From IMG/VR virus record IMGVR_UViG_2684623171_000007: 20,162 nt of DNA. One strand, written 5' to 3'. A program made the translations under genes and the position numbers. Shown piece by piece: positions 3,862 to 17,632 of the stretch (positions are counted from its first letter, which is position 1; each line of letters starts with the position of its first letter). Source of the stretch: a virus (taxonomy: Duplodnaviria; Heunggongvirae; Uroviricota; Caudoviricetes). Under the pieces are notes generated by a model. The model was not told the origin of the DNA. It did no database searches and worked only from the letters and a program-made list of their open reading frames with translations.

Positions 3862-4025
3862 TCACGGTTGTGTGCTTTGAGCACATAGAAGACTTTGTGG
3901 CAGATATTGCCGTTATTTTTAACTGGTCGCCCGCCGAAATCTTCATGATGACGCCCGGCGAAGTGGTTAGCTGGCGTGAGCGGGCGGCACTTCGCAGCGG
4001 GAATGCAGACAATGAAGACTCTTGA
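3496..4025 (+). CDS. E': tail assembly chaperone E+E' fusion, predicted -1 programmed frameshift product (3496..~3812 joined to the -1 frame ending 4025)
   Basis: Heptamer T_TTT_TTG at ~3807-3813 is in the correct phase in the E frame (codons AAT TTT TTG). The -1 frame (ORF track 3789..4025) is open from the slip site for ~70 codons and ends just inside the start of the tape-measure ORF. The same G/GT-type arrangement and T6G motif are established for the P2 E/E' genes. Confidence 0.6.
3807..3813 (+). other. candidate -1 ribosomal frameshift slippery site TTTTTTG
   Basis: Seen directly in the sequence, phased X_XXY_YYZ in the E reading frame. Confidence 0.6.
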
Positions 4026-6815
4026 TATCCGGGTCGCTTTCAGCGCCGTTGACAGGCTGACCCGACCTGCCGAAAACGCACGCCGCCTGATGGGGCAGTT
4101 TGGTGACTCCATCCAGCGAACGCAGGGGGCGATCAAAAATCTCGAGCGTCAGGCGCGATCATTTGAGCGCGCCCGCGACGCTGTCAGTAAAGCGGATGCT
4201 GGCATCGTGAAAGCACGACGCCAGCTTAACGCCCTTAATCAGTTACAACGCACGGGTACAGTGCTCAGCGAAAAACAACAAAAGCTGATGCAGCAGTTAA
4301 GCACCCGGCTTGAACGCCTGAATGAATCGCGCACACGGGAAATTCAGAAAATGAGGGAACTTGGCGGAGAGCTGAAACGCCACGGCATTTCCCTGACAGG
4401 CAGCGATAACACCATTCAGCAGGCCATCAGACGCACCGAACAATACAACAACCAGCTTGAACGCGAACGGCAGGCGCTTGCGCGTGTAACGCAGGCGCGT
4501 GAGCGGTATTCGCACGCGCAGGAAACCGCGGGAAAACTGAAAACAGGTGGTGCGCTGGCAATTGGTGCGGCAGCGGCGGGCGGCTATGCTGCCGGGCGTT
4601 TTTTGCAGCCTGCGATCGGGTTCGGCAAAGAGATGTCCCGCGTTCAGGCACTGACGCGAATCGACAAAAACAGCCCGCAGTTTAAGGCGCTGCGTGAGCA
4701 GGCGTTAAAACTTGCTGAAACACAGTTTACTGCGAGTGATGCCGCCAGTGGGCAGAGCTTTCTGGCAATGGCTGGTTTTACTCCGCAGGCCATTCAGGCC
4801 GCATTGCCCGGTGTTCTTAATATGGCGCTGGCAGGTGGCGTCGAACTCGGCGAGACGGCTGATATAGGCTCCAATATCCTCACACAGTTCAACCTGACAG
4901 CCGATCAAATGGACCGGGTGGGCGATACGCTGACAGCAGCATTTACCCGGACCAATACTGATTTACGCGCGCTGGGCGAAACCATGAAGTATACCGGTCC
5001 GGTTGCCGCAAAACTTGGTATCAGTCTTGAAGAAGCGGCGGCCATGGCCGGGATGCTTGCCAATAATGGTCTTCGCGGAAGCGATGCTGGCACGGCCATG
5101 CGCGCAAGTCTGTCCCGCCTTGCATCACCGCCAAAAGCTGCGGCTGATGCACTGAAAGAGCTGGGGGTGTCAGTTGCTGAGGCCAGAGGCAAAATGCGCC
5201 CGATGGAGGATGTGCTGCTTGATCTCTATAAGGCGACACAAAAATACGGACAGGTGGACCAGGTCTCCTTCTTCAAGGACATCGCCGGAGAAGAGGCGTT
5301 CGTTGGTTTGCAGACGCTTGTTGCGGCGGCTGGTTCAGGAGAGCTGCAAAAACTGACCAGAGAATTGCAGGGGGCAAGGGGAGAGGCCGATCGCGTCGCA
5401 AAAGTAATGGCTGATAATCTTGATGGGGACCTGAAAAATCTCGACAGCGCATGGGAAGGTCTTCGTATTCGCATCAGTGATCTGGTTGACGGTCCGCTGC
5501 GTTCTGTCACGCAGTGGCTCACGCGGGTGCTTGAAAAAATCACCTCGCTGGCGCAGGCCCATCCGGTACTGACGCGCCAGCTACTGATAGCAGGCGGTGC
5601 GTTGCTGGCAATGACTGCAACGATTGGCTCGTTGTCGCTGGTTATTGGGGTGCTTTACGGGAAGCTGGCCACCCTGCGTCTTGGTTTTGACATTCTTACC
5701 CGGTCAATGAATGTCGTCAGGGTGTTACCTGCGCTATGGGGAATGGTGACGGGTTCCGTTTCTTTACTGGGAGGCGTTATCGGGGCGTTGTTCAGTCCGG
5801 TTGGTCTTATCGTGGCTGCGCTTGCCGGAGCTGCCGTTCTTATCTGGAAATACTGGGATCCTATCAGGGCTTTCTTTGCCGGGGTGTTCAGCGGGATTAT
5901 GGAAAGGCTGACCCCGTTGCGCGACACCTTTGAACGGTTTGGCCCTGTTTTTGACGTAATCGGAAGCGGTTCAGCCAGGTGTTTAACTGGTTTAAATCGC
6001 TGCTGTCACCGATGGAGTCCAGCAAGGAAACGCTGGATAAATGTACCAGTGCTGGCGAGGTATTCGGTAACGTTCTTGGTGGTGCGTTACAGCTTGTTCT
6101 GACGCCTGCAAAAATGTTGCTGGATACGCTGGCGTGGATACTTGAAAAACTCGGTGTGCTTCCGGATGAAGCGGAAAGGGCGCGCAAGAAAATCGAAGAC
6201 GCACAACGTGCGGCCATTCTTCAGGACAAGGTTGCTCTGTTTCAGGGAGACATTGCGAAAATCAATCCGCCGAAGTCTGCGGGAAATAGCAATGGCACCG
6301 GAGATGATAAACCCAAAGACAACAAACCTCTCACAGACAGCAATACCGGCACGCTACGCAGACTCAGCAAAATTGCTGATAACACAGGTAAGCTGGTTGA
6401 TGAGACAAAAAAACGCATTGGCCCCGGCGATATTGTCTTTAAGAACCTGCCCCGCGCACTTGCTGTTCGTGGGGAGTGGCAGGAGCGGAAGATTGCGCAG
6501 GTCAGTAAGCCTGCCCCCGCAATTAATATCACACCCGTGGTCCCGGCTCCGCTGCCTCCGGCGCTGGTCCCTGTTGTTGCGGCCAGCTCCCGCCCGGTGG
6601 TGGAGGCCATACGATCGCCAGTGGCATCAGTTCCTGCAACTTCCCGTAACCGGGAGCCTGTTGCCTCCGGATTTGGCGGTGAAATTCATGTTCATCTGCA
6701 TAACGTTGTTACGCAGAATCCCCGCGAACTGGCGAAACTGGTCGGCGAAATGGTCAGGGCAGAAATGGAACGGCGCGCCCGTGCCAGGCGTGGCAGTTTT
6801 TACGATAAAGATTGA
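3976..6815 (+). pseudogene. T: tail tape measure protein (P2 gpT-like), split into two frames by an apparent 1-bp frameshift near 5966-5980
   Basis: ORF track 3976..6102 (708 aa, GTG at 3976; alternative in-frame ATGs at ~4003 and ~4012) is coiled-coil-rich with a long hydrophobic stretch, as expected for a tape measure. ORF 5979..6815 (278 aa) continues in the -1 frame with no gap. Around GGAAGCGGTTCAGCCAGGTG, one extra T (GGTTTCAGC) would give a continuous ..FDVIGSGFSQVFNWFKSLL.. reading. The C-terminal frame ends 13 nt before the U gene. Confidence 0.7.
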
Positions 6816-8090: not shown

Positions 8091-8621
8091 ATTGTGGGGC
8101 GACTGGCCACTCAACATCCGCTGCTACTGTTGTATCAACACGATTCAACAATACCCGATATGTCTTCCATGCAGCCAGTAACGATGCCTCTTCCTCCGTC
8201 GCAATATCCAAATCTACGGCATCCTGAAGTGGCGCAATATGCTCACTGGCTACCTGCATCAGGCTGTTTTTTGTTTCTTCTGCCTCCCGTACCCGAAACA
8301 GTTTTTCTGCTTCTGCATCTTTCGCCCAGGATGTGCCGTTCCACTTCTGACACTCTCCATCCGGCGACAACCAGGTAACATTTTCCGGTAACGGACCGAG
8401 TTCAGAAATAAATAACGCGTCGCCGGAAGCCACGTCATAAACCGTTTTACCCCGATGATCTTCAACGAGATGCCACGATGCCTCATTACTGTTGAAAACA
8501 GCCACGAAGCCAGCCGGAATATCTGGCGGTGCAATATCGGTACTGTTTGCTGGCAGACCTGTATGAGGCGGAATGTATGCGTCACCTTCACCAATAAATT
8601 CATTAGTTCCGGCCAGCAGAT
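8089..8621 (-). pseudogene. tfa: tail fibre assembly protein (Tfa, P2 gpG-like), 5'-truncated by the IS629-like insertion at 8622
   Basis: ORF track 8089..8505 (GTG-initiated) ends ..[30 protein letters not shown], the characteristic Tfa C-terminus. The same frame stays open upstream to the IS boundary (..[45 protein letters not shown]..), matching the internal part of Tfa proteins as I recall them; about 15-20 N-terminal codons and the start codon are missing. Confidence 0.85.
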
Positions 8622-8675: not shown

Positions 8676-9002
8676 ATGACTAAAAATACACGTTTTTCCC
8701 CCGAGGTCCGTCAACGGGCAGTCCGTATGGTTCTGGAAAGTCAGGGCGAATATGACTCACAATGGGCGGCAATTCGTTCCATTGCCCCAAAGATTGGCTG
8801 TACACCAGAGACTCTGCGTGTGTGGGTTCGTCAGCATGAGCGGGATACCGGGGGCGGTGATGGTGGACTCACCACCGCTGAACGTCAGCGTCTGAAAGAG
8901 CTGGAACGTGAAAATCGTGAACTGCGCCGCAGTAACGATATCCTTCGCCAGGCTTCCGCTTATTTTGCGAAGGCGGAGTTCGACCGCCTCTGGAAAAAAT
9001 AA
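8676..9002 (+). CDS. IS629-like transposase OrfA (copy 2)
   Basis: ORF track 108 aa; differs from copy 1 OrfA at 4 residues (V16, G24, R34, T67 versus I, D, C, S). Confidence 0.85.
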
Positions 9003-9678
9003 TGCCGCTGCTGGATAAGCTGCGTGAGCAGTACGGGGTCGGACCGGTATGCAGTGAACTGCATATTGCCCCGTCAACGGATTACCACTGTCAGCAACAG
9101 CGACATCATCCGGATAAACGCAGTGCCCGTGCGCAGCGCGATGACTGGCTGAAGAGAGAGATACAGCGCGTATACGATGAAAATCATCAGGTGTACGGTG
9201 TGCGTAAAGTCTGGCGCCAGTTGTTACGCGAAGGTATCAGGGTGGCCAGATGTACAGTGGCGCGCCTCATGGCGGTTATGGGACTTGCCGGTGTTCTCCG
9301 GGGTAAAAAGGTCCGTACTACCGTCAGCCGGAAAGCCGTTTCCGCAGGCGACCGCGTAAACCGTCAGTTCGTGGCAGAACGTCCTGACCAGCTGTGGGTG
9401 GCTGATTTTACTTACGTCAGCACATGGCAGGGCTTCGTCTATGTGGCGTTCATCATTGATGTGTTTTCCGGATGTATCGTGGGGTGGCGAGTCTCATCGT
9501 CTATGGAAACGACATTCGTGCTGGATGCACTGGAGCAGGCGTTGTGGGCCCGTCGGCCGTCCGGCACAGTCCATCACAGTGATAAAGGTTCTCAGTATGT
9601 ATCACTGGCCTATACGGAGCGACTAAAAGAAGCAAAACTGCTGGCATCAACAGGGAGTACAGGTGACTCGTATGACAA
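9002..9678 (+). pseudogene. IS629-like transposase OrfB, C-terminally truncated (copy 2)
   Basis: ORF track 9002..9691 (229 aa); the last residues (..DSYDNVFY*) are read from non-IS sequence, so the conserved C-terminal ~70 aa of OrfB are missing. Confidence 0.8.
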
Positions 9679-9710: not shown

Positions 9711-10025
9711 TTATTCTGGGAATAAGGTCTGAATATTCTTTTTTATTTTATAAAAATTGCATTCAACTCCGCTAGGCTGATTAGCCTGGTATGTTTCCTT
9801 GATGCTAACGGTATTGAAGGGGAGGTTGTCCTCTGGCCATTCGGCCATCCAGTAGGCAAATGCTGGGTTGCGCTTTATGAGTGCTAGCCCAGCCAGAAAG
9901 GCCGCGCGTTGCGCGCGGCTGCGTTCGGAGGCTGGCAGGCTATCGAGGTAATTGCACGCCTCCTGTTCACTCTTGACGGCGGCGGGCTTCAGATAGAAAC
10001 TTATCCGTCTGGTTGGTGTCGTCAT
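9711..10025 (-). CDS. parR: ParR/StbB-like centromere-binding partition protein (ribbon-helix-helix)
   Basis: ORF track 104 aa; starts 5 bp after the parM-like stop. N-terminal half (RRISFYLKP...LDSLPASERSRAQRAAFLAGLAL) resembles ParR of plasmid R1 as I recall it (..TIAFKLNP..LDSIPQGERSRLNRAALTAGLAL..). The C-terminal third is divergent and encoded by AT-rich DNA next to the IS junction. Confidence 0.6.
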   Translation of the reverse strand: MTTPTRRISFYLKPAAVKSEQEACNYLDSLPASERSRAQRAAFLAGLALIKRNPAFAYWMAEWPEDNLPFNTVSIKETYQANQPSGVECNFYKIKKNIQTLFPE

Positions 10026-10029
10026 TGGT

Positions 10030-10989
10030 TTACTCCTTGTTCATTGCGTACAACCCATTAACCAGAGCAAACTGTGGCACCCCGTCCGCGATGAAAGTCG
10101 CATTAACTCCGCAGGCTTCGCGGATAGCGGTTGCCACAATCTCCGCCCCGCCACCGACAACCATCACCCGCCCGTAACCCGAAAAAACCGCCAGCGCGCG
10201 GATCACGCGTTGTTTCAGTGTTTCTTCCTTTTCACGAATAACCGCCATCAGGCTGGCGTAATGCGCGTCATTGTGGATGTGCTGGCGCAGCCAGGCTTCA
10301 TCATGGCGATGTTCGATAATGGTATTGGCGATGTGGTGACTGGTGCGCATACCGTTAGTGGCCATCACCGACAGTACGGCATCGGCCATCAGAGAAACGC
10401 CTACGTGTGGATCGCAAAACACCTGGCTGATACCTGCCAGTTGCCCCTGAACCTTTGCCACATCCAGCGTGGTTCCGCCCAAATCCACAATCAGCAGGGA
10501 TTCAAACGGACTCATGTCAGCCAGTGCCTTAAAGCCAGCAGGAATGGATTCAGGCATAACCCGTACGTTACGGATAGTGAATGCTTCGCCGTTCTGGTAC
10601 TCCACCGGGCGCATGACGTTCGCTTTTTTGCGGTTGATGTTGGCCATGTCCGGCTGTGCGTTTGTATCGAAATACTCGCTCAGTGGCAGGGTGACAACCA
10701 CATCCACTTCCTGTGGTGTGATGCCTGATTTGACCAGCGCGTGATGAATGGCAATTACATTCACATCGCTGTACTGGTATTGCGTGTCGGTCGTCTGGAC
10801 AAAGCGATCGCTGACCGGATCAAAACCATAGCGCACGCCATCAAGCATGTAGTTCGCGGGCTGCGTGCCACCGAATGGCGCAGACCATTCCGACTTGAAG
10901 CTGTTCGGGCTGATGGCGTTGCGGCGTTCGCCGTTCTCAGTCCATGCCAGCTTGATGTTGGTGGAGCCGTCGTCGATACAAATTTTCAT
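10030..10989 (-). CDS. parM: ParM/StbA-like actin-type partition ATPase
   Basis: ORF track 319 aa with AAGGA Shine-Dalgarno. Family-defining blocks IDDGSTNIKL, ISPNSF, YQYSDVNVIAIHHAL, MPESIPAG, LIVDLGGTTLD, GVSL, FSGY..VMVVGGGAE and LVNGLY align with R1 ParM/StbA as I recall it. Confidence 0.85.
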   Translation of the reverse strand: MKICIDDGSTNIKLAWTENGERRNAISPNSFKSEWSAPFGGTQPANYMLDGVRYGFDPVSDRFVQTTDTQYQYSDVNVIAIHHALVKSGITPQEVDVVVTLPLSEYFDTNAQPDMANINRKKANVMRPVEYQNGEAFTIRNVRVMPESIPAGFKALADMSPFESLLIVDLGGTTLDVAKVQGQLAGISQVFCDPHVGVSLMADAVLSVMATNGMRTSHHIANTIIEHRHDEAWLRQHIHNDAHYASLMAVIREKEETLKQRVIRALAVFSGYGRVMVVGGGAEIVATAIREACGVNATFIADGVPQFALVNGLYAMNKE

Positions 10990-11023: not shown

Positions 11024-11132
11024 ACAGGATTTTTAAATCCCGCTTTTGCCTGTTTTGTGCGCGCTTCATATATCGCGGCGCGTTTTTTGCTCATTTACGG
11101 GATTTGTGAGTCCCGTTTCTGTCTGTTTTTTG
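11024..11132. repeat. two ~36-bp direct repeats, each with internal dyad symmetry, upstream of parM (candidate parC-like centromere/operator or tandem hairpins)
   Basis: Copy 1 ~11024-11059 ACAGGATTTTTAAATCCCGCTTTTGCCTGTTTTGTG; copy 2 ~11097-11132 ACGGGATTTGTGAGTCCCGTTTCTGTCTGTTTTTTG (about 27 of 36 positions identical). Cores GGATTT..AAATCC and ACGGGA..TCCCGT are inverted repeats followed by T-rich tracts. Copy 2 lies inside the last ~20 codons of gene A. Confidence 0.4.
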
Positions 11133-13888
11133 TTTCCACTGGTCAGGCCACCCCGCAGCAGGTCTGCTTTGCGGCTGGCGCGTTCAGTGGTTTCACTGAT
11201 TCTCTGTGCGTGCTCTGCGTCGCGGATGGCGCGCAGCATGTCAGAAAGCACGGTAACGGGTGTTTTCATGGTGTTCTGGTCCTGCTGAAGTGTGGATGCC
11301 AGGCGTGCGGCGGCTTCAGGGTCTGATGCCCCCAGCTGTGCCAGATAGCTGGCGACCGGGTTATGGCGGATCTCCGTGCTGCTTACGCCATGATTACGGC
11401 TCAGGCGCTGCCAGAGCTGCGTGATTCGGCTGTCCGGGCGGGTATCCGGTTTGCGTACAATTTCAAATCCCTGCGGTGCAATGATGCTGCCGTCAACGTA
11501 CAGACTGCCGCCCCGTAACAGGTGCTGCATCTGTTGTTCACCGATATGCAGGCCGAGAGATTCAGCAGACTCCCGCCATTCTTTAGCGAGTAATTCGTGG
11601 TTATCAGGCAAAGGCCGCTGCTGTTTGCGGCTCTGTGTCCAGCTCTGCATTTCATCACTGCTGTTTTTTGCCTGTTTGTCACGAAGCGAACGCATCAGCG
11701 CCCGGCGTTCGTGCCGTTTCAGTGAGCGCATCCATTCGTTCACGTCAACGCCGTCAGGAAGCTGCGGCCACGGTGCTGGCCGTTCTTCCGGCTGTTCTGT
11801 CCCGTTGTTGTCCGTTTCCTGTACACGGGGACAGTTATTGCCACGAGTCCAAGGGGCGGCAGGGCCGCCCTGAAGGTCAAAACCATTTTCGCGGGCGCTG
11901 TCTTCTACTCCCGGTTTACGTCTTACCAGCTTCCAGTTATCCGGGTGCGTGCACACACGGGAGGATTCCCCGATGAGTGGTGACCAGATCCCGTAAATCT
12001 GTACGCTCTGTTCGCCGTAATCGTTCAGCTCATCTGCGAGGTCGTAGGCGGTGCGAATCAGGTAGTCCTTGCGTGGAACAAGTACGCCTCCCTGTTTCTC
12101 AATGTAGGTGGTAAAACATCCGGCATCAGCGGCAGCAAGAACCGCATCCATTGCGTCATCCTTCAGCCGTTGCGGGCCTTCCGGGTTGCGTGCCATCTGG
12201 CTGGCAAGGCGACGCAGTTCACGCCACACCTGACGGGAGGGGATGCCAAAGAACTGGAACTGGCGGACCCGGTGAAGGCGCGCCCAGCCAATGGCGCGTT
12301 CCACGCTCTCGGTCATTGATTTTCCGGTTTCGTGGTCAACGCGTGGTTTGCCTGTTTTCGGGTCGATGCCATCCACGGCGCGGCTGTCCAGGTTTTTTCC
12401 GATGTAGGTGGCGATGTAGCTGGTTGGCGTGCCTTTTGAGCCGTCGACATACTCCGCCTTAAAGCGCGGAGTAATATCATCGCCCAGCTCGTGACGATCT
12501 TCCTGAATGGCAATATCGCGGGTGTGGGACACAATGGTGTCGATTTCTTCCGGATGAGCAAAGACCATCATATGCCAGTGCACGGTGCCGTCATGGTGAG
12601 GCTCCACCGTGCGGATGCCATACCAGCGCAGGCCGTCGCGGTTCAGTTTCTTGCGGACCGCCGCAAAAAACGTGTTAACCAGGTAATCGCTGGAGTCGCG
12701 CATGGTGGCCCCGTTCCATTTGGGATTCGGATGACCGTTCTCTGTTGTAGCGTGGTATTTTGACGGGCAGGTGACAGTCAGAAACACCGCTTTGTCGCCA
12801 CGGGCTTCGGCCAGAAGTTCCAGCCCCTTCATGGTGGCCATCATTTCTGCCTTACGGTGAACCGGGTTACTTACTCCCGCGTAATACACTGTCTCGAGAT
12901 CAATCGTGAACCCGTCTTCGTTTTCCAGCATGAAACTTTTCAGGAAATCGCGTGTTTTCTCGCGCTGTGCGCGAAACTCGCTTAACGCGTCCTGGCTCAG
13001 ATAGGGCGATGTTTTTCTGGAAACCAGACAGGCGGCGCGGAGTTGTTCTTCTCTCCACTCGCAACGTAACAGCCACAGTTTGCGTTTCCACCATTCCGCA
13101 CAGGTCAGGCGAAGGATTGCGCCCGGCAGCAGCTCCGTGTCCGGTTCGTTCCTCCGGTCTTTGTCTGTTGTCAGTGCGTCATAATGTGGAGGCATGGCGT
13201 GCAGGTGTAACGCCATGCGGGCCAGCATCTGATACGCCTTCAGCGTTACATCCATGGTCAGTTCGCCATCGGTCGCGCCAAAGCCATCGCAGAGTTTTTC
13301 GAAGGTGCTGCTGAACATCGCCGCCGTCATGGTGGCCAGCGTCTGTATCTGGTGTTTGTTGAGCTGCGGCAGGTAAAGCAAATCGTCCAGGCGTTCGCGT
13401 CCGGCAAGGGAGCGATAACCCTGTGTCAGCCAGCGGTGATCGGTGCGCTCCAGACGTTCGAATATTTTGCGCAGGTTTCCGCGCGCGTAGCGTTCAGCCT
13501 GCCAGCTCTTTTTGCCTTTCTGACGATCGGCTTCCTGTTTTTTGCGCAGGAAGGAGAGGTGGCGAATAAGCGGATCGCGCAGATAGGACGGCAGCAGGCG
13601 CAGCGAGGCCATGGCTTCATCCACCGCACCGCGTGCCTGTTTTCTGGCGTCTCCTGCCAGTGTGATGGTTTTGTCCTGTTTTTCCTGTGCGTCCAGGCTT
13701 TTATTAATCAGGTTGCCCAGCGGCGTTGCGGAGAACGCCGCATCAGCCATTTCCTGGCGGCGCTCGTTCTCTACCCGGTAGGCATCCAGCCAGGAGGAAA
13801 GCGCGGATTCAGGAGCGGGGATCCCCGTTCCTTCACGCCCCACTGCGTGGCGCGGTTGTTGCCAGTCCCTGATGTACTCTGCCGTCAT
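11066..13888 (-). CDS. A: replication initiation endonuclease (P2 gpA-like, HUH rolling-circle initiator)
   Basis: ORF track 940 aa. Contains an HUH-type motif (DGTVHWHMMVF) and a downstream tyrosine motif (TPTSYIATYIGKNLDS), the arrangement established for P2 A-family initiators. Sits at the distal end of the early operon as in P2. It is longer than P2 A as I recall it (~760 aa), so the real start or C-terminal tail may differ. Confidence 0.8.
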   Translation of the reverse strand: MTAEYIRDWQQPRHAVGREGTGIPAPESALSSWLDAYRVENERRQEMADAAFSATPLGNLINKSLDAQEKQDKTITLAGDARKQARGAVDEAMASLRLLPSYLRDPLIRHLSFLRKKQEADRQKGKKSWQAERYARGNLRKIFERLERTDHRWLTQGYRSLAGRERLDDLLYLPQLNKHQIQTLATMTAAMFSSTFEKLCDGFGATDGELTMDVTLKAYQMLARMALHLHAMPPHYDALTTDKDRRNEPDTELLPGAILRLTCAEWWKRKLWLLRCEWREEQLRAACLVSRKTSPYLSQDALSEFRAQREKTRDFLKSFMLENEDGFTIDLETVYYAGVSNPVHRKAEMMATMKGLELLAEARGDKAVFLTVTCPSKYHATTENGHPNPKWNGATMRDSSDYLVNTFFAAVRKKLNRDGLRWYGIRTVEPHHDGTVHWHMMVFAHPEEIDTIVSHTRDIAIQEDRHELGDDITPRFKAEYVDGSKGTPTSYIATYIGKNLDSRAVDGIDPKTGKPRVDHETGKSMTESVERAIGWARLHRVRQFQFFGIPSRQVWRELRRLASQMARNPEGPQRLKDDAMDAVLAAADAGCFTTYIEKQGGVLVPRKDYLIRTAYDLADELNDYGEQSVQIYGIWSPLIGESSRVCTHPDNWKLVRRKPGVEDSARENGFDLQGGPAAPWTRGNNCPRVQETDNNGTEQPEERPAPWPQLPDGVDVNEWMRSLKRHERRALMRSLRDKQAKNSSDEMQSWTQSRKQQRPLPDNHELLAKEWRESAESLGLHIGEQQMQHLLRGGSLYVDGSIIAPQGFEIVRKPDTRPDSRITQLWQRLSRNHGVSSTEIRHNPVASYLAQLGASDPEAAARLASTLQQDQNTMKTPVTVLSDMLRAIRDAEHAQRISETTERASRKADLLRGGLTSGNKKQTETGLTNPVNEQKTRRDI

Positions 13889-13894
13889 AGTGAT

Positions 13895-14260
13895 TTACTT
13901 CGTCATGCCATTCAGGGTGTCGCGGCAGGCTGTAGCCAGCCGCTGAATTTCCAGCACGGTGTCTTCTGTGTCGGCATGGCGATGTGTGATGCGGATGCTG
14001 TCGGCAATCACATCGACGATTGCAGAGGATGGGCGCTGGTAAATGCCAATAACGGACGGGGTGCCACCTTCAATGCGGTAAAGCCTGTAATTTCCCTCGT
14101 GGCTGTCAATCATGTAGCGACCATCAATAACAATCTTTCCGTCAGCGAGCTGCGGTACAGGCAGGGATTTCAGGTACATGTCATAACGATCACGCACGCG
14201 AGCGGCAAGATCACGTTCTGTGTTGAGCAGGTATTCAAGAAAGTCGTTGGCGAGAATCAT
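13895..14260 (-). CDS. hypothetical protein (early operon, immediately upstream of A)
   Basis: ORF track 121 aa, same strand and tightly spaced with A; no family recognised by eye. Confidence 0.45.
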   Translation of the reverse strand: MILANDFLEYLLNTERDLAARVRDRYDMYLKSLPVPQLADGKIVIDGRYMIDSHEGNYRLYRIEGGTPSVIGIYQRPSSAIVDVIADSIRITHRHADTEDTVLEIQRLATACRDTLNGMTK

Positions 14261-14332
14261 TGCGGCAATCCTCTTGTTACAGATGTGCGAAGGCCTCCCG
14301 CCGCAAGGTGCAGGAAAGGCCCGGAACAGGAA

Positions 14333-14563
14333 TTAATGGAGTTTGTTTTGCTGCTGGATGAGCTGTTGAAACTCGTGCAGATCATCCGCCAGATAGCTGA
14401 AAACAGAGGCGGAATAAATGTTTGATAGTGCGTGGCTGCGCTCATGCAGCATATTGATGTGCATGATTTGCGCGACGCGTGATGCGCGGGAAAGTCTGCG
14501 GTTGATTTCAGTCTGGATGTGACGACGCTCCGCGATAGCGCGGTGCTGTTTGCGGTCTGCCAT
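14333..14563 (-). CDS. hypothetical small basic protein (76 aa)
   Basis: ORF track; AAGAGG Shine-Dalgarno about 8 nt upstream of the ATG. Preferred over the overlapping 205-aa ORF 14257..14874, which has low-complexity composition. Confidence 0.4.
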   Translation of the reverse strand: MADRKQHRAIAERRHIQTEINRRLSRASRVAQIMHINMLHERSHALSNIYSASVFSYLADDLHEFQQLIQQQNKLH

Positions 14564-14740
14564 GGTGTGGCCTCTTTGCTCGGTGATAGAAATAACTCAC
14601 CATCCAGAGTTGAGAATCTCGGGGTGGCGAGACGTACAGGGTTCTCAACACCGGAGAGCAAAGAATCCGGCCCGACCGAAGTCGGCCCCGTACGCCCCGC
14701 CATAATTCTGACGCGAAAAAGACGTGGCAATACAGTACGC

Positions 14741-14764
14741 ACAAAAAAACCGCTAGCGCGGTTA
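14741..14764 (-). terminator. candidate rho-independent terminator on the minus strand
   Basis: On the minus strand: 6-bp stem AACCGC/GCGGTT with a 4-nt loop, followed by TTTTTTT (plus strand reads ACAAAAAAACCGCTAGCGCGGTT). Confidence 0.4.
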
Positions 14765-14835
14765 TGCGCTTTGCTCTGTATCGGGTTGAGAATCCCGGCA
14801 CCCGTTTTATGAGGTGCAGCGGAAATGTAACCTGA

Positions 14836-14864
14836 CCGATTGCGGCATGGCAAGCGGTTTTTTT
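14836..14864 (+). terminator. candidate rho-independent terminator on the plus strand (antisense to the early operon)
   Basis: CCGATTGC-GGCATG-GCAAGCGG (8-bp stem with one mismatch, 6-nt loop) followed by TTTTTTT. Confidence 0.4.
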
Positions 14865-14885
14865 GTGTGTGCATGTTCTGGTTTC

Positions 14886-15671: not shown

Positions 15672-16088
15672 CTATGCGTTAAATACGGCACGTTGCGCGT
15701 CATCAATGAATACAGCTTGAGAGCGTTCTATCAGGCGGAGATTTGTCAGAAGCTCTGACTCTTTTGTGTGGTAAGGCGTTATCAGGTATTTGCCGTGCAG
15801 TTCGGCAATAATGGTGTATTGCAGCATCATTGCTGAACCAAGAATATAAATGCAGCGTCCAATGCTGGACGGATTCATGGCTGCAACTGTTGACTGTGTT
15901 TTAAGAGTGTCGATTTCTTTGCTCTGTTCCTCAATAACTTTGGCTGCTTCAGGGGTGGCTATTGCGATGGTCAGTGCGTAAAGCGCTGCCATATGTTGAT
16001 TATCTTTCTGGGCTGCCCTGGACAGCTTGTCTTGCTCTGCTGACACTATTTTTAATGTATTGATAATATTTTTTTCTTTTGCGTTCAT
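15672..16088 (-). CDS. hypothetical protein
   Basis: ORF track 138 aa; GGAG Shine-Dalgarno (GGAGATATAAAATG); AT-rich coding region. Confidence 0.5.
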   Translation of the reverse strand: MNAKEKNIINTLKIVSAEQDKLSRAAQKDNQHMAALYALTIAIATPEAAKVIEEQSKEIDTLKTQSTVAAMNPSSIGRCIYILGSAMMLQYTIIAELHGKYLITPYHTKESELLTNLRLIERSQAVFIDDAQRAVFNA

Positions 16089-16180
16089 TTTATATCTCCG
16101 TTATTTACGTGTGCGAATACCTCCGCGAATGCGGATAGTTTTCAGGTTTTCGGGTTTAATCTGGTGTTCTGTTTAAGCTG

Positions 16181-16294
16181 TTATTTGTCAGTGAAAAAGC
16201 GTTCAATCTTTTTTACTGAATGAATAATTCGCATAATCCCAATGGCGCAGGCCACCGAAATAATCAGAACAAGCCATGAGATAAATATACTCAT
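16181..16294 (-). CDS. small hydrophobic membrane peptide, 37 aa (MSIFISWLVLIISVACAIGIMRIIHSVKKIERFFTDK), not in the ORF track
   Basis: Read by eye. ATG overlaps the TGA stop of ORF 16291..16533 (ATGA), suggesting translational coupling. One predicted transmembrane helix followed by a basic tail. Coordinates approximate to 1-2 bp. Confidence 0.4.
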   Translation of the reverse strand: MSIFISWLVLIISVACAIGIMRIIHSVKKIERFFTDK

Positions 16295-16533
16295 GCGATA
16301 TTCCCCAGCTTATATGGTTCAATGTGTTCCCCGCATTCTGCGGCACAGATCAGCTCGGAAAGTTCGTTAAGTGCATCCAGATCATCAGCGTAAAAAGCAA
16401 CGTCATACAAACTCCGGATTGCCCTGGTCAATGAGTCACGGGCTGCACGTTCAGCATGAGCGCCTGATGCACTTAAGCGAAAATAAAATCGTTCAGGTGC
16501 TTTGTTAATGAGAGTTTTATATTCTTTGCCCAT
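16291..16533 (-). CDS. hypothetical protein
   Basis: ORF track 80 aa; operon context. Confidence 0.45.
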   Translation of the reverse strand: MGKEYKTLINKAPERFYFRLSASGAHAERAARDSLTRAIRSLYDVAFYADDLDALNELSELICAAECGEHIEPYKLGNIA

Positions 16534-17205: not shown

Positions 17206-17409
17206 TTAGCTGTTAGCCAAAGCGTCTTTTAACATCGCCACAAGGTTTACTTCAGGCTTTTCCATTTTGGCGCGTTTGGGGCGGATAATAATTCGACCGT
17301 CAGCCAACATCTTTTTGCATGTATTAAGAGGGATACCTGTTATCTCTGCATATTTCTGCAGGGATACATAGGGGGCATTCACATTGATATTGATGGTTAT
17401 ACCTGACAT
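17206..17409 (-). CDS. Cox/excisionase-like small HTH protein
   Basis: ORF track 67 aa. The segment PYVSLQKYAEITGIPLNTCKKMLADGRIIIRP resembles the P2 Cox segment as I recall it (IPYQEFAKLIGKSTGAVRRMIDKGKLPVI). Second gene of the early operon. Confidence 0.5.
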   Translation of the reverse strand: MSGITININVNAPYVSLQKYAEITGIPLNTCKKMLADGRIIIRPKRAKMEKPEVNLVAMLKDALANS

Positions 17410-17425: not shown

Positions 17426-17632
17426 TCAGGAAGATTTGTTTTGTTCTTTCTGGGTTAGCTCTAGGCCGCGAAGGGAGATCATGCGCGCCATGTTAGAGGA
17501 TGAGCGTTGTTCTTTAGCTGCCATTTCATCAATGACGGCTCGCTCCTCGAGGGACAGCCGAAGTGCCAGTCTTGGACCTGTGGCGGTGTTACGCGGAATG
17601 CGTGATCTGGTATCGTGAAGAACTTGTTTCAT
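17426..17632 (-). CDS. ribbon-helix-helix (Arc/CopG-like) DNA-binding protein, first gene of the early operon
   Basis: ORF track 68 aa; the pattern PRLALRLSLEERAVIDEMAAKEQRSSSNMARMI fits a beta-strand followed by two helices as in RHH repressors. Immediately downstream of the divergent promoter region. Confidence 0.5.
   Translation of the reverse strand: MKQVLHDTRSRIPRNTATGPRLALRLSLEERAVIDEMAAKEQRSSSNMARMISLRGLELTQKEQNKSS

Follow-up and report, generated by a model that had tools for sequence, protein, structure and literature searches.

A conserved 37-codon gene in the early operon of P88-type prophages encodes a predicted single-pass membrane protein

Introduction

Does a reading frame of 37 codons that begins on the stop codon of an early prophage gene encode a protein of use to the phage, and what might such a protein do? 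The question was raised by a stretch of 20,162 nucleotides of viral DNA (this whole stretch is called the window here), for which a first-pass annotation made from the letters had proposed such a frame and described it as unannotated. Regulators of the AcrZ and MgrB type, which are 30-50 residues long and carry one transmembrane (TM) helix, act by binding a larger membrane protein, and the type I toxins Hok, TisB, LdrD, ZorO and Ibs are small, hydrophobic single-helix peptides with a charged end. We examined the reading frame, its relatives and its genetic surroundings.

Results

A P88-type prophage carries the frame in its early operon

The window belongs to a P2-like prophage of the P88 type, which is integrated beside yecA in E. 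coli O157:H7 and is degraded. Over the 2.1 kb surrounding the ORF, many O157:H7 chromosomes match the window at 100% identity. The ORF is contained in the early (Cox-side) operon, which is that of a P88-type phage (genus Xuanwuvirus, Peduoviridae). Genes on the minus strand follow the order Cox-like, DUF4761, hypothetical, DUF4754, 37-aa ORF, 138-aa, 67-aa, MarR-like and Ead-like, with the derepression protein, a hypothetical protein and the GpA-type replication endonuclease further 3', and a C-type repressor and an integrase are encoded on the opposite strand. The early phage gene setting that the first-pass annotation had suggested was borne out by this gene order and by the matches to Cox, C, derepression and GpA proteins. 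Coordinates of the features discussed here are collected in Table 1.

Table 1. Features of the 37-codon gene and its surroundings, in window coordinates
Feature	Position	Strand	Basis or remark
37-aa small membrane protein CDS	16181..16294	-	Intact frame in 86/88 loci; identical to RefSeq WP_000021655.1
ATGA start/stop overlap of 37-aa ORF and upstream DUF4754 gene	16291..16294	-	
Shine-Dalgarno-like GGGGA	16302..16306	-	7 nt 5' of ORF ATG, within DUF4754 coding sequence
Predicted TM helix, codons 3-21, IFISWLVLIISVACAIGIM	16232..16288	-	Hydropathy, conservation, AF2
Predicted cytoplasmic basic amphipathic tail, codons 22-37, RIIHSVKKIERFFTDK	16184..16231	-	Hydrophobic moment, conservation
DUF4754 gene, 80 aa	16291..16533	-	PF15946; always directly 5' of peptide gene
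5-bp hairpin TCCGC ATTC GCGGA	16122..16135	-	45 nt after peptide stop
138-aa gene after hairpin	15672-16088	-	PHROG 9338; function not given by family
Cox-like excisionase/repressor	17206-17409	-	PHROG 575
Derepression protein	14333-14563	-	PF25738
GpA-type replication endonuclease	11066-13888	-	

Several other features of the prophage were recorded. Its late side is degraded and its early operon is intact. RefSeq flags the tape-measure gene as frameshifted, and two IS3-family ALIL frameshift pseudoknots and an IS009 RNA match occur amid tail genes (2296-2412 on the minus strand, 8957-9073 on the plus, 8126-8324 on the minus and 3976-6102 on the plus). Directly 3' of the GpA gene, at 9711-10989 on the minus strand, lies a ParM (StbA) and Plasmid_stab_B partition pair, a plasmid-type segregation module within a P2-like prophage. 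Just 5' of the derepression gene, a C4 antisense RNA (Rfam, 78.5 bits) and isrK (63 bits) stand in tandem at 14620-14707 and 14743-14817 on the minus strand, forming an RNA immunity or antirepressor module of the P1/P4 style within a P2-like prophage. Both RNAs are missing from the PGAP features of the matching RefSeq locus, and the long ORFs that overlap them (e.g. 14257-14874) are probably spurious. In the switch region, PGAP annotates a 45-aa ORF at 17481-17618 on the plus strand, which is wholly overlapped by a 68-aa ORF at 17426-17632 on the minus strand. The 68-aa ORF, at the head of the early operon, is without a Shine-Dalgarno sequence (+0.6 kcal/mol); the two ORFs are represented by only 5 and 2 alleles, too few to decide coding, and have no Pfam match.

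The start codon overlaps the upstream stop

The proposed coding frame at 16181-16294 was confirmed and was found to lie on the minus strand, which the first-pass annotation had not stated. Its product, MSIFISWLVLIISVACAIGIMRIIHSVKKIERFFTDK, has 37 residues, with translation beginning at an ATG and ending at a TAA (16181-16183). As had been claimed, the ATG (16294-16292) shares bases with the TGA of the 80-aa DUF4754 gene in a 4-nt ATGA overlap. This overlap was present in 88 of 88 close loci and also in the distant loci L089 and L093-L097.

The GGGGA upstream of the ATG has an anti-Shine-Dalgarno pairing energy of -5.5 kcal/mol, which places it in the top fifth of background strength (-2.05 +/- 2.5) and is typical for the genes of the operon. 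Distant loci carry GAGGAG, GGAGG or GAGGTG 4-6 nt 5' of the AUG, with pairing energies of -7.6 to -10.3 kcal/mol, and these motifs persist although the C-terminus of DUF4754 differs there. The AUG is within a 6-bp palindromic stem of the predicted mRNA fold, which was not significant (z = -1.7). The overlapping AUGA, taken with the Shine-Dalgarno-like site, leads us to propose partial coupling, in which ribosomes probably enter at the AUGA in part by termination-reinitiation from DUF4754. An identical 4-nt ATGA overlap joins the 67-aa/MarR and MarR/Ead gene pairs of the same operon, indicating that such overlaps are a general style of the operon and not a special link between two of its genes.

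The frame is under selection as a coding sequence

We assembled 88 related loci, comprising the O157 locus L001, chromosomal and phage loci, and 80 IMG/VR contigs, to monitor selection on the frame. The 80 IMG/VR loci came from an alignment-based scan of viral contigs; a single-protein scan of genome contigs gave only 2. A frame that was not conserved, or was interrupted, in homologous regions had been named at the outset as the observation that would count against a gene. The frame was unbroken in 86 of the 88 loci, which represent 46 nucleotide alleles, and it was intact in diverged prophages too. The two broken copies are accounted for by one frameshift and one IS3 insertion (L006).

The ratio pN/pS, computed over 38 alleles of 114 nt, was 0.24 in the frame of the ORF and 1.47 and 1.03 in the other two sense frames. 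The antisense frames gave 1.63, 0.31 and 0.81, the value of 0.31 being expected because that frame shares its wobble positions with the coding frame. Segregating sites numbered 10, 6 and 20 at codon positions 1, 2 and 3, respectively (chi-square p = 0.013). The upstream DUF4754 gene is under tighter constraint over the same loci, with a pN/pS of 0.066. In the diverged prophages, synonymous sites have reached saturation (pS 0.5-0.8); the peptide still retains 46-66% identity to the window copy, and the identity of DUF4754 falls to 25-39%. The most diverged members that we found, P0076, P0077 and P0079 (43-62% identity), each lie in a P2-like early operon, where the start of the gene is 4 nt ahead of the stop of a DUF4754-type gene of 80 aa. 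On these patterns of conservation, the 37-codon frame is a conserved gene and not a chance ORF.

The peptide does not appear in the supplementary gene lists of two Ribo-seq studies of EHEC (PMC5597208, PMC4765031). This absence is expected because the operon is controlled by a repressor in uninduced cells, yet it lends the gene no support either.

The product is predicted to be a single-pass membrane protein

When all six frames of the whole window are searched for ATG-initiated ORFs of 30-60 aa, the ORF ranks first in hydrophobicity among the 69 obtained. Its best TM segment spans residues 3-21, for which the Hessa dG sums to -2.9 kcal/mol and Kyte-Doolittle hydropathy averages 2.68. No lysine or arginine precedes this segment in the window copy and five follow it, so that the earlier description of one hydrophobic helix with a basic tail holds. 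The same asymmetry was seen in 87 of 88 distinct full-length family members: K/R residues are absent N-terminal of the helix, and three or more lie C-terminal of it. Under the positive-inside rule, such a distribution of charge predicts a single-pass protein oriented N-out/C-in, of which only two residues would be outside. The stretch from residue 22 to residue 35 is amphipathic (hydrophobic moment 0.55-0.72), with I23/I24, V27, I30 and F33/F34 forming a hydrophobic stripe and R22, H/N25, K28, K29, E31 and R32 at the polar positions.

AF2, run with the family alignment, modelled residues 2-35 as a single unbroken helix with a mean pLDDT of 85.9. A short N-out end followed by a TM helix and an amphipathic helix is, on paper, also the build of TatA and TatE. 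However, the modelled helix is straight and the hinge of TatA is missing, and membership of that family was rejected, as NCBIfam NF003393 matched one family member only, with E = 0.004 and 16.9 bits against a cutoff of 104.

Conservation across the family is uneven. The residues M1, F4, S6, W7, L10, I11, A17, G19, I20, M21, R22, I23, I24, K28 and I30 are conserved in at least 90% of members, and a small-xxx-small pair, [S/A]13...A17, is retained across the family. The C-terminal end is variable and defines three length classes, ending in FFT[GD][EK] (37 aa), LFTG[DE]xRRK (41 aa) and FSLxNNxxNKTxx (45 aa).

We considered whether the hydrophobic segment could instead be a lipoprotein or secretion signal peptide, with cleavage before Cys16 freeing a 22-aa lipopeptide. 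The residues SVAC at positions 13-16 loosely resemble a lipobox. Lipoprotein signals combine a charged n-region, a lipobox and an invariant cysteine, and this combination was not found in the family: the n-region is without K/R, the -1 position (residue 15) is free (A/V/L/I, often V, L or I) and is the most variable of the helix, and members of the 41-aa class have Met in place of Cys16. We therefore rejected the lipobox and find a lipoprotein scarcely credible.

The gene is catalogued, common and narrowly distributed

The description of the frame as unannotated proved to be wrong outside the ORF track on which it had been based, since the gene is present in RefSeq, in GenBank phage records and in UniRef. 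PGAP labels the CDS WP_000021655.1, 'hypothetical protein', in essentially all of the complete genomes sampled. In the record of phage P88 it is gp07, a 'membrane protein' (YP_009113050.1) that is 94.6% identical to the window peptide, and UniRef names it 'Prophage membrane protein' (A0A0C2F1Q7), with the exact sequence occurring in >1000 contigs. These P88, RefSeq and UniRef records carry annotation only, with no experiment or paper attached. The peptide belongs to this uncurated P88 gp07/WP_000021655.1 family by a full-length sequence match and also by synteny, as its gene, within a P2-like early operon, directly follows a DUF4754-type gene of 80 aa and overlaps it by 4 nt. P88 gp07 itself occupies the same slot after DUF4754, with the same overlap, in a Xuanwuvirus-type early operon.

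In an exhaustive phmmer search, only 9 of 1.84 billion cluster representatives matched. A profile search headed by a 41-aa member found 152 clusters (90% identity), with E values down to about 1e-20. Nearly all of these are from Escherichia (E. coli, E. albertii and E. fergusonii), all are named 'hypothetical protein', and none contains a Pfam domain. For the peptide itself, no family was found in Pfam, PHROGs, NCBIfam, PADLOC or a PDB sequence profile, and a literature search with the peptide sequence, its accessions, DUF4754 and DUF4761 found no paper. Relatives of a 501-nt core were present in 1385 of 5426 complete E. coli genomes (about a quarter), including O157:H7 and ST131. The gene is thus very common yet narrowly distributed. 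It is already catalogued yet uncharacterised, a gene for a phage-encoded small single-pass membrane protein; its recognition here brings databases no new gene, and as yet no surprising biology.

Two records call for caution in their own right. In CP025874.1 (L007, Escherichia phage 503458), an unannotated record, DUF4754 and the peptide gene contain several frameshifts, and the record looks like an error-rich assembly and not a true gene loss. NZ_JBQPOM010000071.1 (L002), a 226-kb contig labelled Vagococcus sp. WN89Y, encodes a DUF4754 that is 96% identical to that of E. coli; the label, which refers to a genus of Firmicutes, is probably due to contamination or mislabelling.

DUF4754 is a constant neighbour and a candidate partner

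The DUF4754 and peptide genes were adjacent without exception in 94 loci. Because the two are never separated, DUF4754 is the obvious candidate for a partner of the peptide. We rate it weakly, as a possibility suggested by adjacency, since ATGA overlaps also occur at other junctions of the operon and since a natural recombinant argues against tight co-adaptation of the two proteins. The recombinant, L095 (GCA_900536625.1, 3762-4126), combines an E. coli-type DUF4754 with a peptide of the 41-aa type. That type usually accompanies a DUF4754 that is 39% identical to the one in the window, and L095 seems to have its junction close to the 3' end of DUF4754.

The AF2 model of DUF4754 is a three-helix bundle (pLDDT 70.5), and a Foldseek search of this model against the PDB found nothing with E < 1. 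Two further leads were discarded. Proteins of 103-128 aa labelled 'DUF4754', which could have been natural fusions with the peptide, were frameshift read-throughs in the wrong frame and mostly singletons. A similarity of DUF4754 to P2 gpB over an 18-aa stretch gave a shuffle p of 0.003, but the hhalign probability was 1.8%.

A conserved hairpin follows the gene

The hairpin downstream of the ORF is placed 31-32 nt past the stop in distant loci. It is followed directly by a near-invariant GG, there is an A-rich run at 16136-16160, and it stands where the conserved cox-to-peptide block gives way to a slot whose genes vary. Among 19 distinct variants, 98.9% of cells were paired, with compensatory double changes at 2 of the 5 pairs. 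Three one-sided changes produce U.G or G.U pairs on the sense strand and A.C mismatches on the other strand. This wobble on the sense strand only, in three cases of three (p = 0.125), is suggestive of a hairpin that works in the early mRNA. Phage 186 tR1 and the P2 terminator, at the same operon position, are canonical terminators; the hairpin, in contrast, is without a T-run on the sense strand, and it reads terminator-like on the plus strand. It might mark a processing site, act as a 5' stabiliser or be nut-like, and it may not be part of the function of the peptide.

The gene content of the slot 3' of the hairpin differs among relatives. The 138-aa gene occurs there in the window and in locus L004, and is absent from phage P88 and from L005, where the 67-aa gene comes next. 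A promoter-like site at 16040-16067 on the opposite strand is aimed at the hairpin.

The conserved hairpin at the border of the variable block, together with the shortness of the ORF and its proposed coupling to the upstream gene, would fit a model in which translation itself matters and the peptide is a by-product, with ribosome traffic preventing Rho-dependent polarity or setting the folding of the hairpin. The distance between stop and hairpin, however, is not fixed, as the stop shifts among forms of 37, 41, 45 and 59 aa. Purifying selection on amino acids is limited to the frame of the ORF, and the TM helix, the charge asymmetry and the near-invariant residues survive at 43-66% identity, where synonymous sites are saturated. 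These properties of the product make a by-product very improbable.

Discussion

The analysis points to a real gene, and the nature of its product can be approached through its position and its build. The gene would be transcribed within the early (Cox-side) operon, and from this position we infer that it is expressed only after derepression, with the C repressor keeping it off in the lysogen and its product appearing early once the prophage is induced or a cell is infected. The N-terminal 19-21 residues are predicted to insert as a TM helix, and the basic, amphipathic C-terminal residues (about 16) would extend this helix into the cytoplasm. The peptide may tether or modulate a phage partner, for which DUF4754 is a candidate, or it may bind a host inner-membrane protein.

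The same operon slot, located between the switch genes and a structured RNA element, 5' of replication gene A, is occupied in phage 186 by fil, which encodes a division inhibitor, and dhr, which encodes an inhibitor of host DNA replication, and in P2 by orf78 and B. The 186 genes of this slot, fil and dhr, are non-essential and modulate the host. Because the slot is shared with these genes, an accessory role in modulating the host or anchoring a partner is suggested for the peptide. Fil, Dhr and Orf78, however, have no TM helix and no sequence relation to the peptide. No small hydrophobic ORF was found in the early operons of 186 and P2, which argues that the peptide gene is a lineage-specific addition in P88-type phages. 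A resemblance to the C-terminus of 186 Fil (IIRIVHFVIK compared to IMRIIHSVKK) was examined and set aside; its Smith-Waterman score of 29 had a shuffle p of 0.036, and the p values for diverged members were >0.25.

In build, the peptide is like the small inner-membrane regulators AcrZ, MgrB, MgtS, MgtR, SgrT, KdpF and CydX, which are also short, single-TM and oriented by charge, and as predicted it has the single TM helix, the length of at most 50 aa and the charge-set orientation of that class, whose way of acting, by binding a larger membrane protein, serves as our working model. It differs from the AcrZ and MgrB class in being phage-encoded and operon-internal, and has no similarity to the curated families.

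The first-pass annotation had drawn attention to host killing, host takeover and membrane regulation, and neither homology nor the literature nor gene context singled out one of these three. As to host killing, in being a small and very hydrophobic membrane peptide, with a single helix and a charged C-terminal end, the product does have a build common to type I toxins. A toxin of this kind would oligomerise in the inner membrane and dissipate the proton-motive force, like Hok, TisB, Ldr, Zor or holin-like peptides. The genetic arrangement argues against it. Type I toxins have a nearby RNA antitoxin and an independent transcription unit, and neither was found here by Rfam or by a promoter scan. 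The peptide gene is internal to an operon and overlaps the upstream stop, and so does not form a stand-alone unit of toxin and antisense RNA. Rfam detected no antitoxin RNA at or near the locus, a search that an unmodelled RNA could escape, and promoter-like sites were no commoner than in shuffled sequence, with none positioned to give an antisense transcript over the ORF. A holin would be expected in a late lysis cassette beside an endolysin, but no lysis genes adjoin the ORF and no endolysin is near its position in the early operon. The gene also lies 5' of the replication genes, where an early loss of proton-motive force would presumably harm the phage itself. Finally, conservation in the family is specific to position and goes beyond hydrophobicity. 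We consider a toxin unlikely, and a role in lysis, as a lipoprotein or as a type I toxin fits poorly.

A role in superinfection exclusion would have the peptide bind an inner-membrane component needed by incoming phage DNA and so block injection, in the way of T4 Imm and HK97 gp15, which are also small phage inner-membrane proteins and are not homologous to it. Small phage membrane proteins of such a kind are known to exclude phages, and a small inner-membrane protein of a temperate phage, with a predicted N-out/C-in anchor, could act in this manner. Unlike a moron that is expressed in the lysogen from its own promoter, however, the peptide gene is part of a repressor-controlled early lytic operon, so that any protection would be confined to lytic growth. 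Neither the peptide nor its neighbours matched an exclusion or defence profile in PADLOC or PHROG. Exclusion is, in our judgement, rather improbable.

The reading that we favour, with confidence only a little above even, is that this is a real gene for a single-pass inner-membrane protein, which would assist early lytic development as an accessory factor anchored in the membrane and act through specific protein contacts. The near-invariance of S6, W7, L10, I11, A17, G19-I24, K28 and I30 suggests specific contact, since perturbation of lipids would need only generic hydrophobicity. This argument is a weak one, because pore-forming families of type I toxins also have conserved residues. In a bolder form, which we regard as tentative and doubtful, the peptide would be an early-lytic effector that binds and reprograms an essential inner-membrane machine of the host (e.g. 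the divisome, FtsH, Sec/YidC or a PTS permease), perhaps together with DUF4754.

Small membrane proteins have received too little study, and the early operons of phages are known to encode compact inhibitors of host machinery. Should the peptide prove to anchor DUF4754, it would offer a first way into the study of that uncharacterised domain. If its target is a host membrane complex, the peptide may provide a handy probe or inhibitor of 37 residues. An effector that acts with DUF4754 on a host machine would, if true, represent a new two-gene takeover or exclusion module, carried by about one quarter of E. coli genomes.
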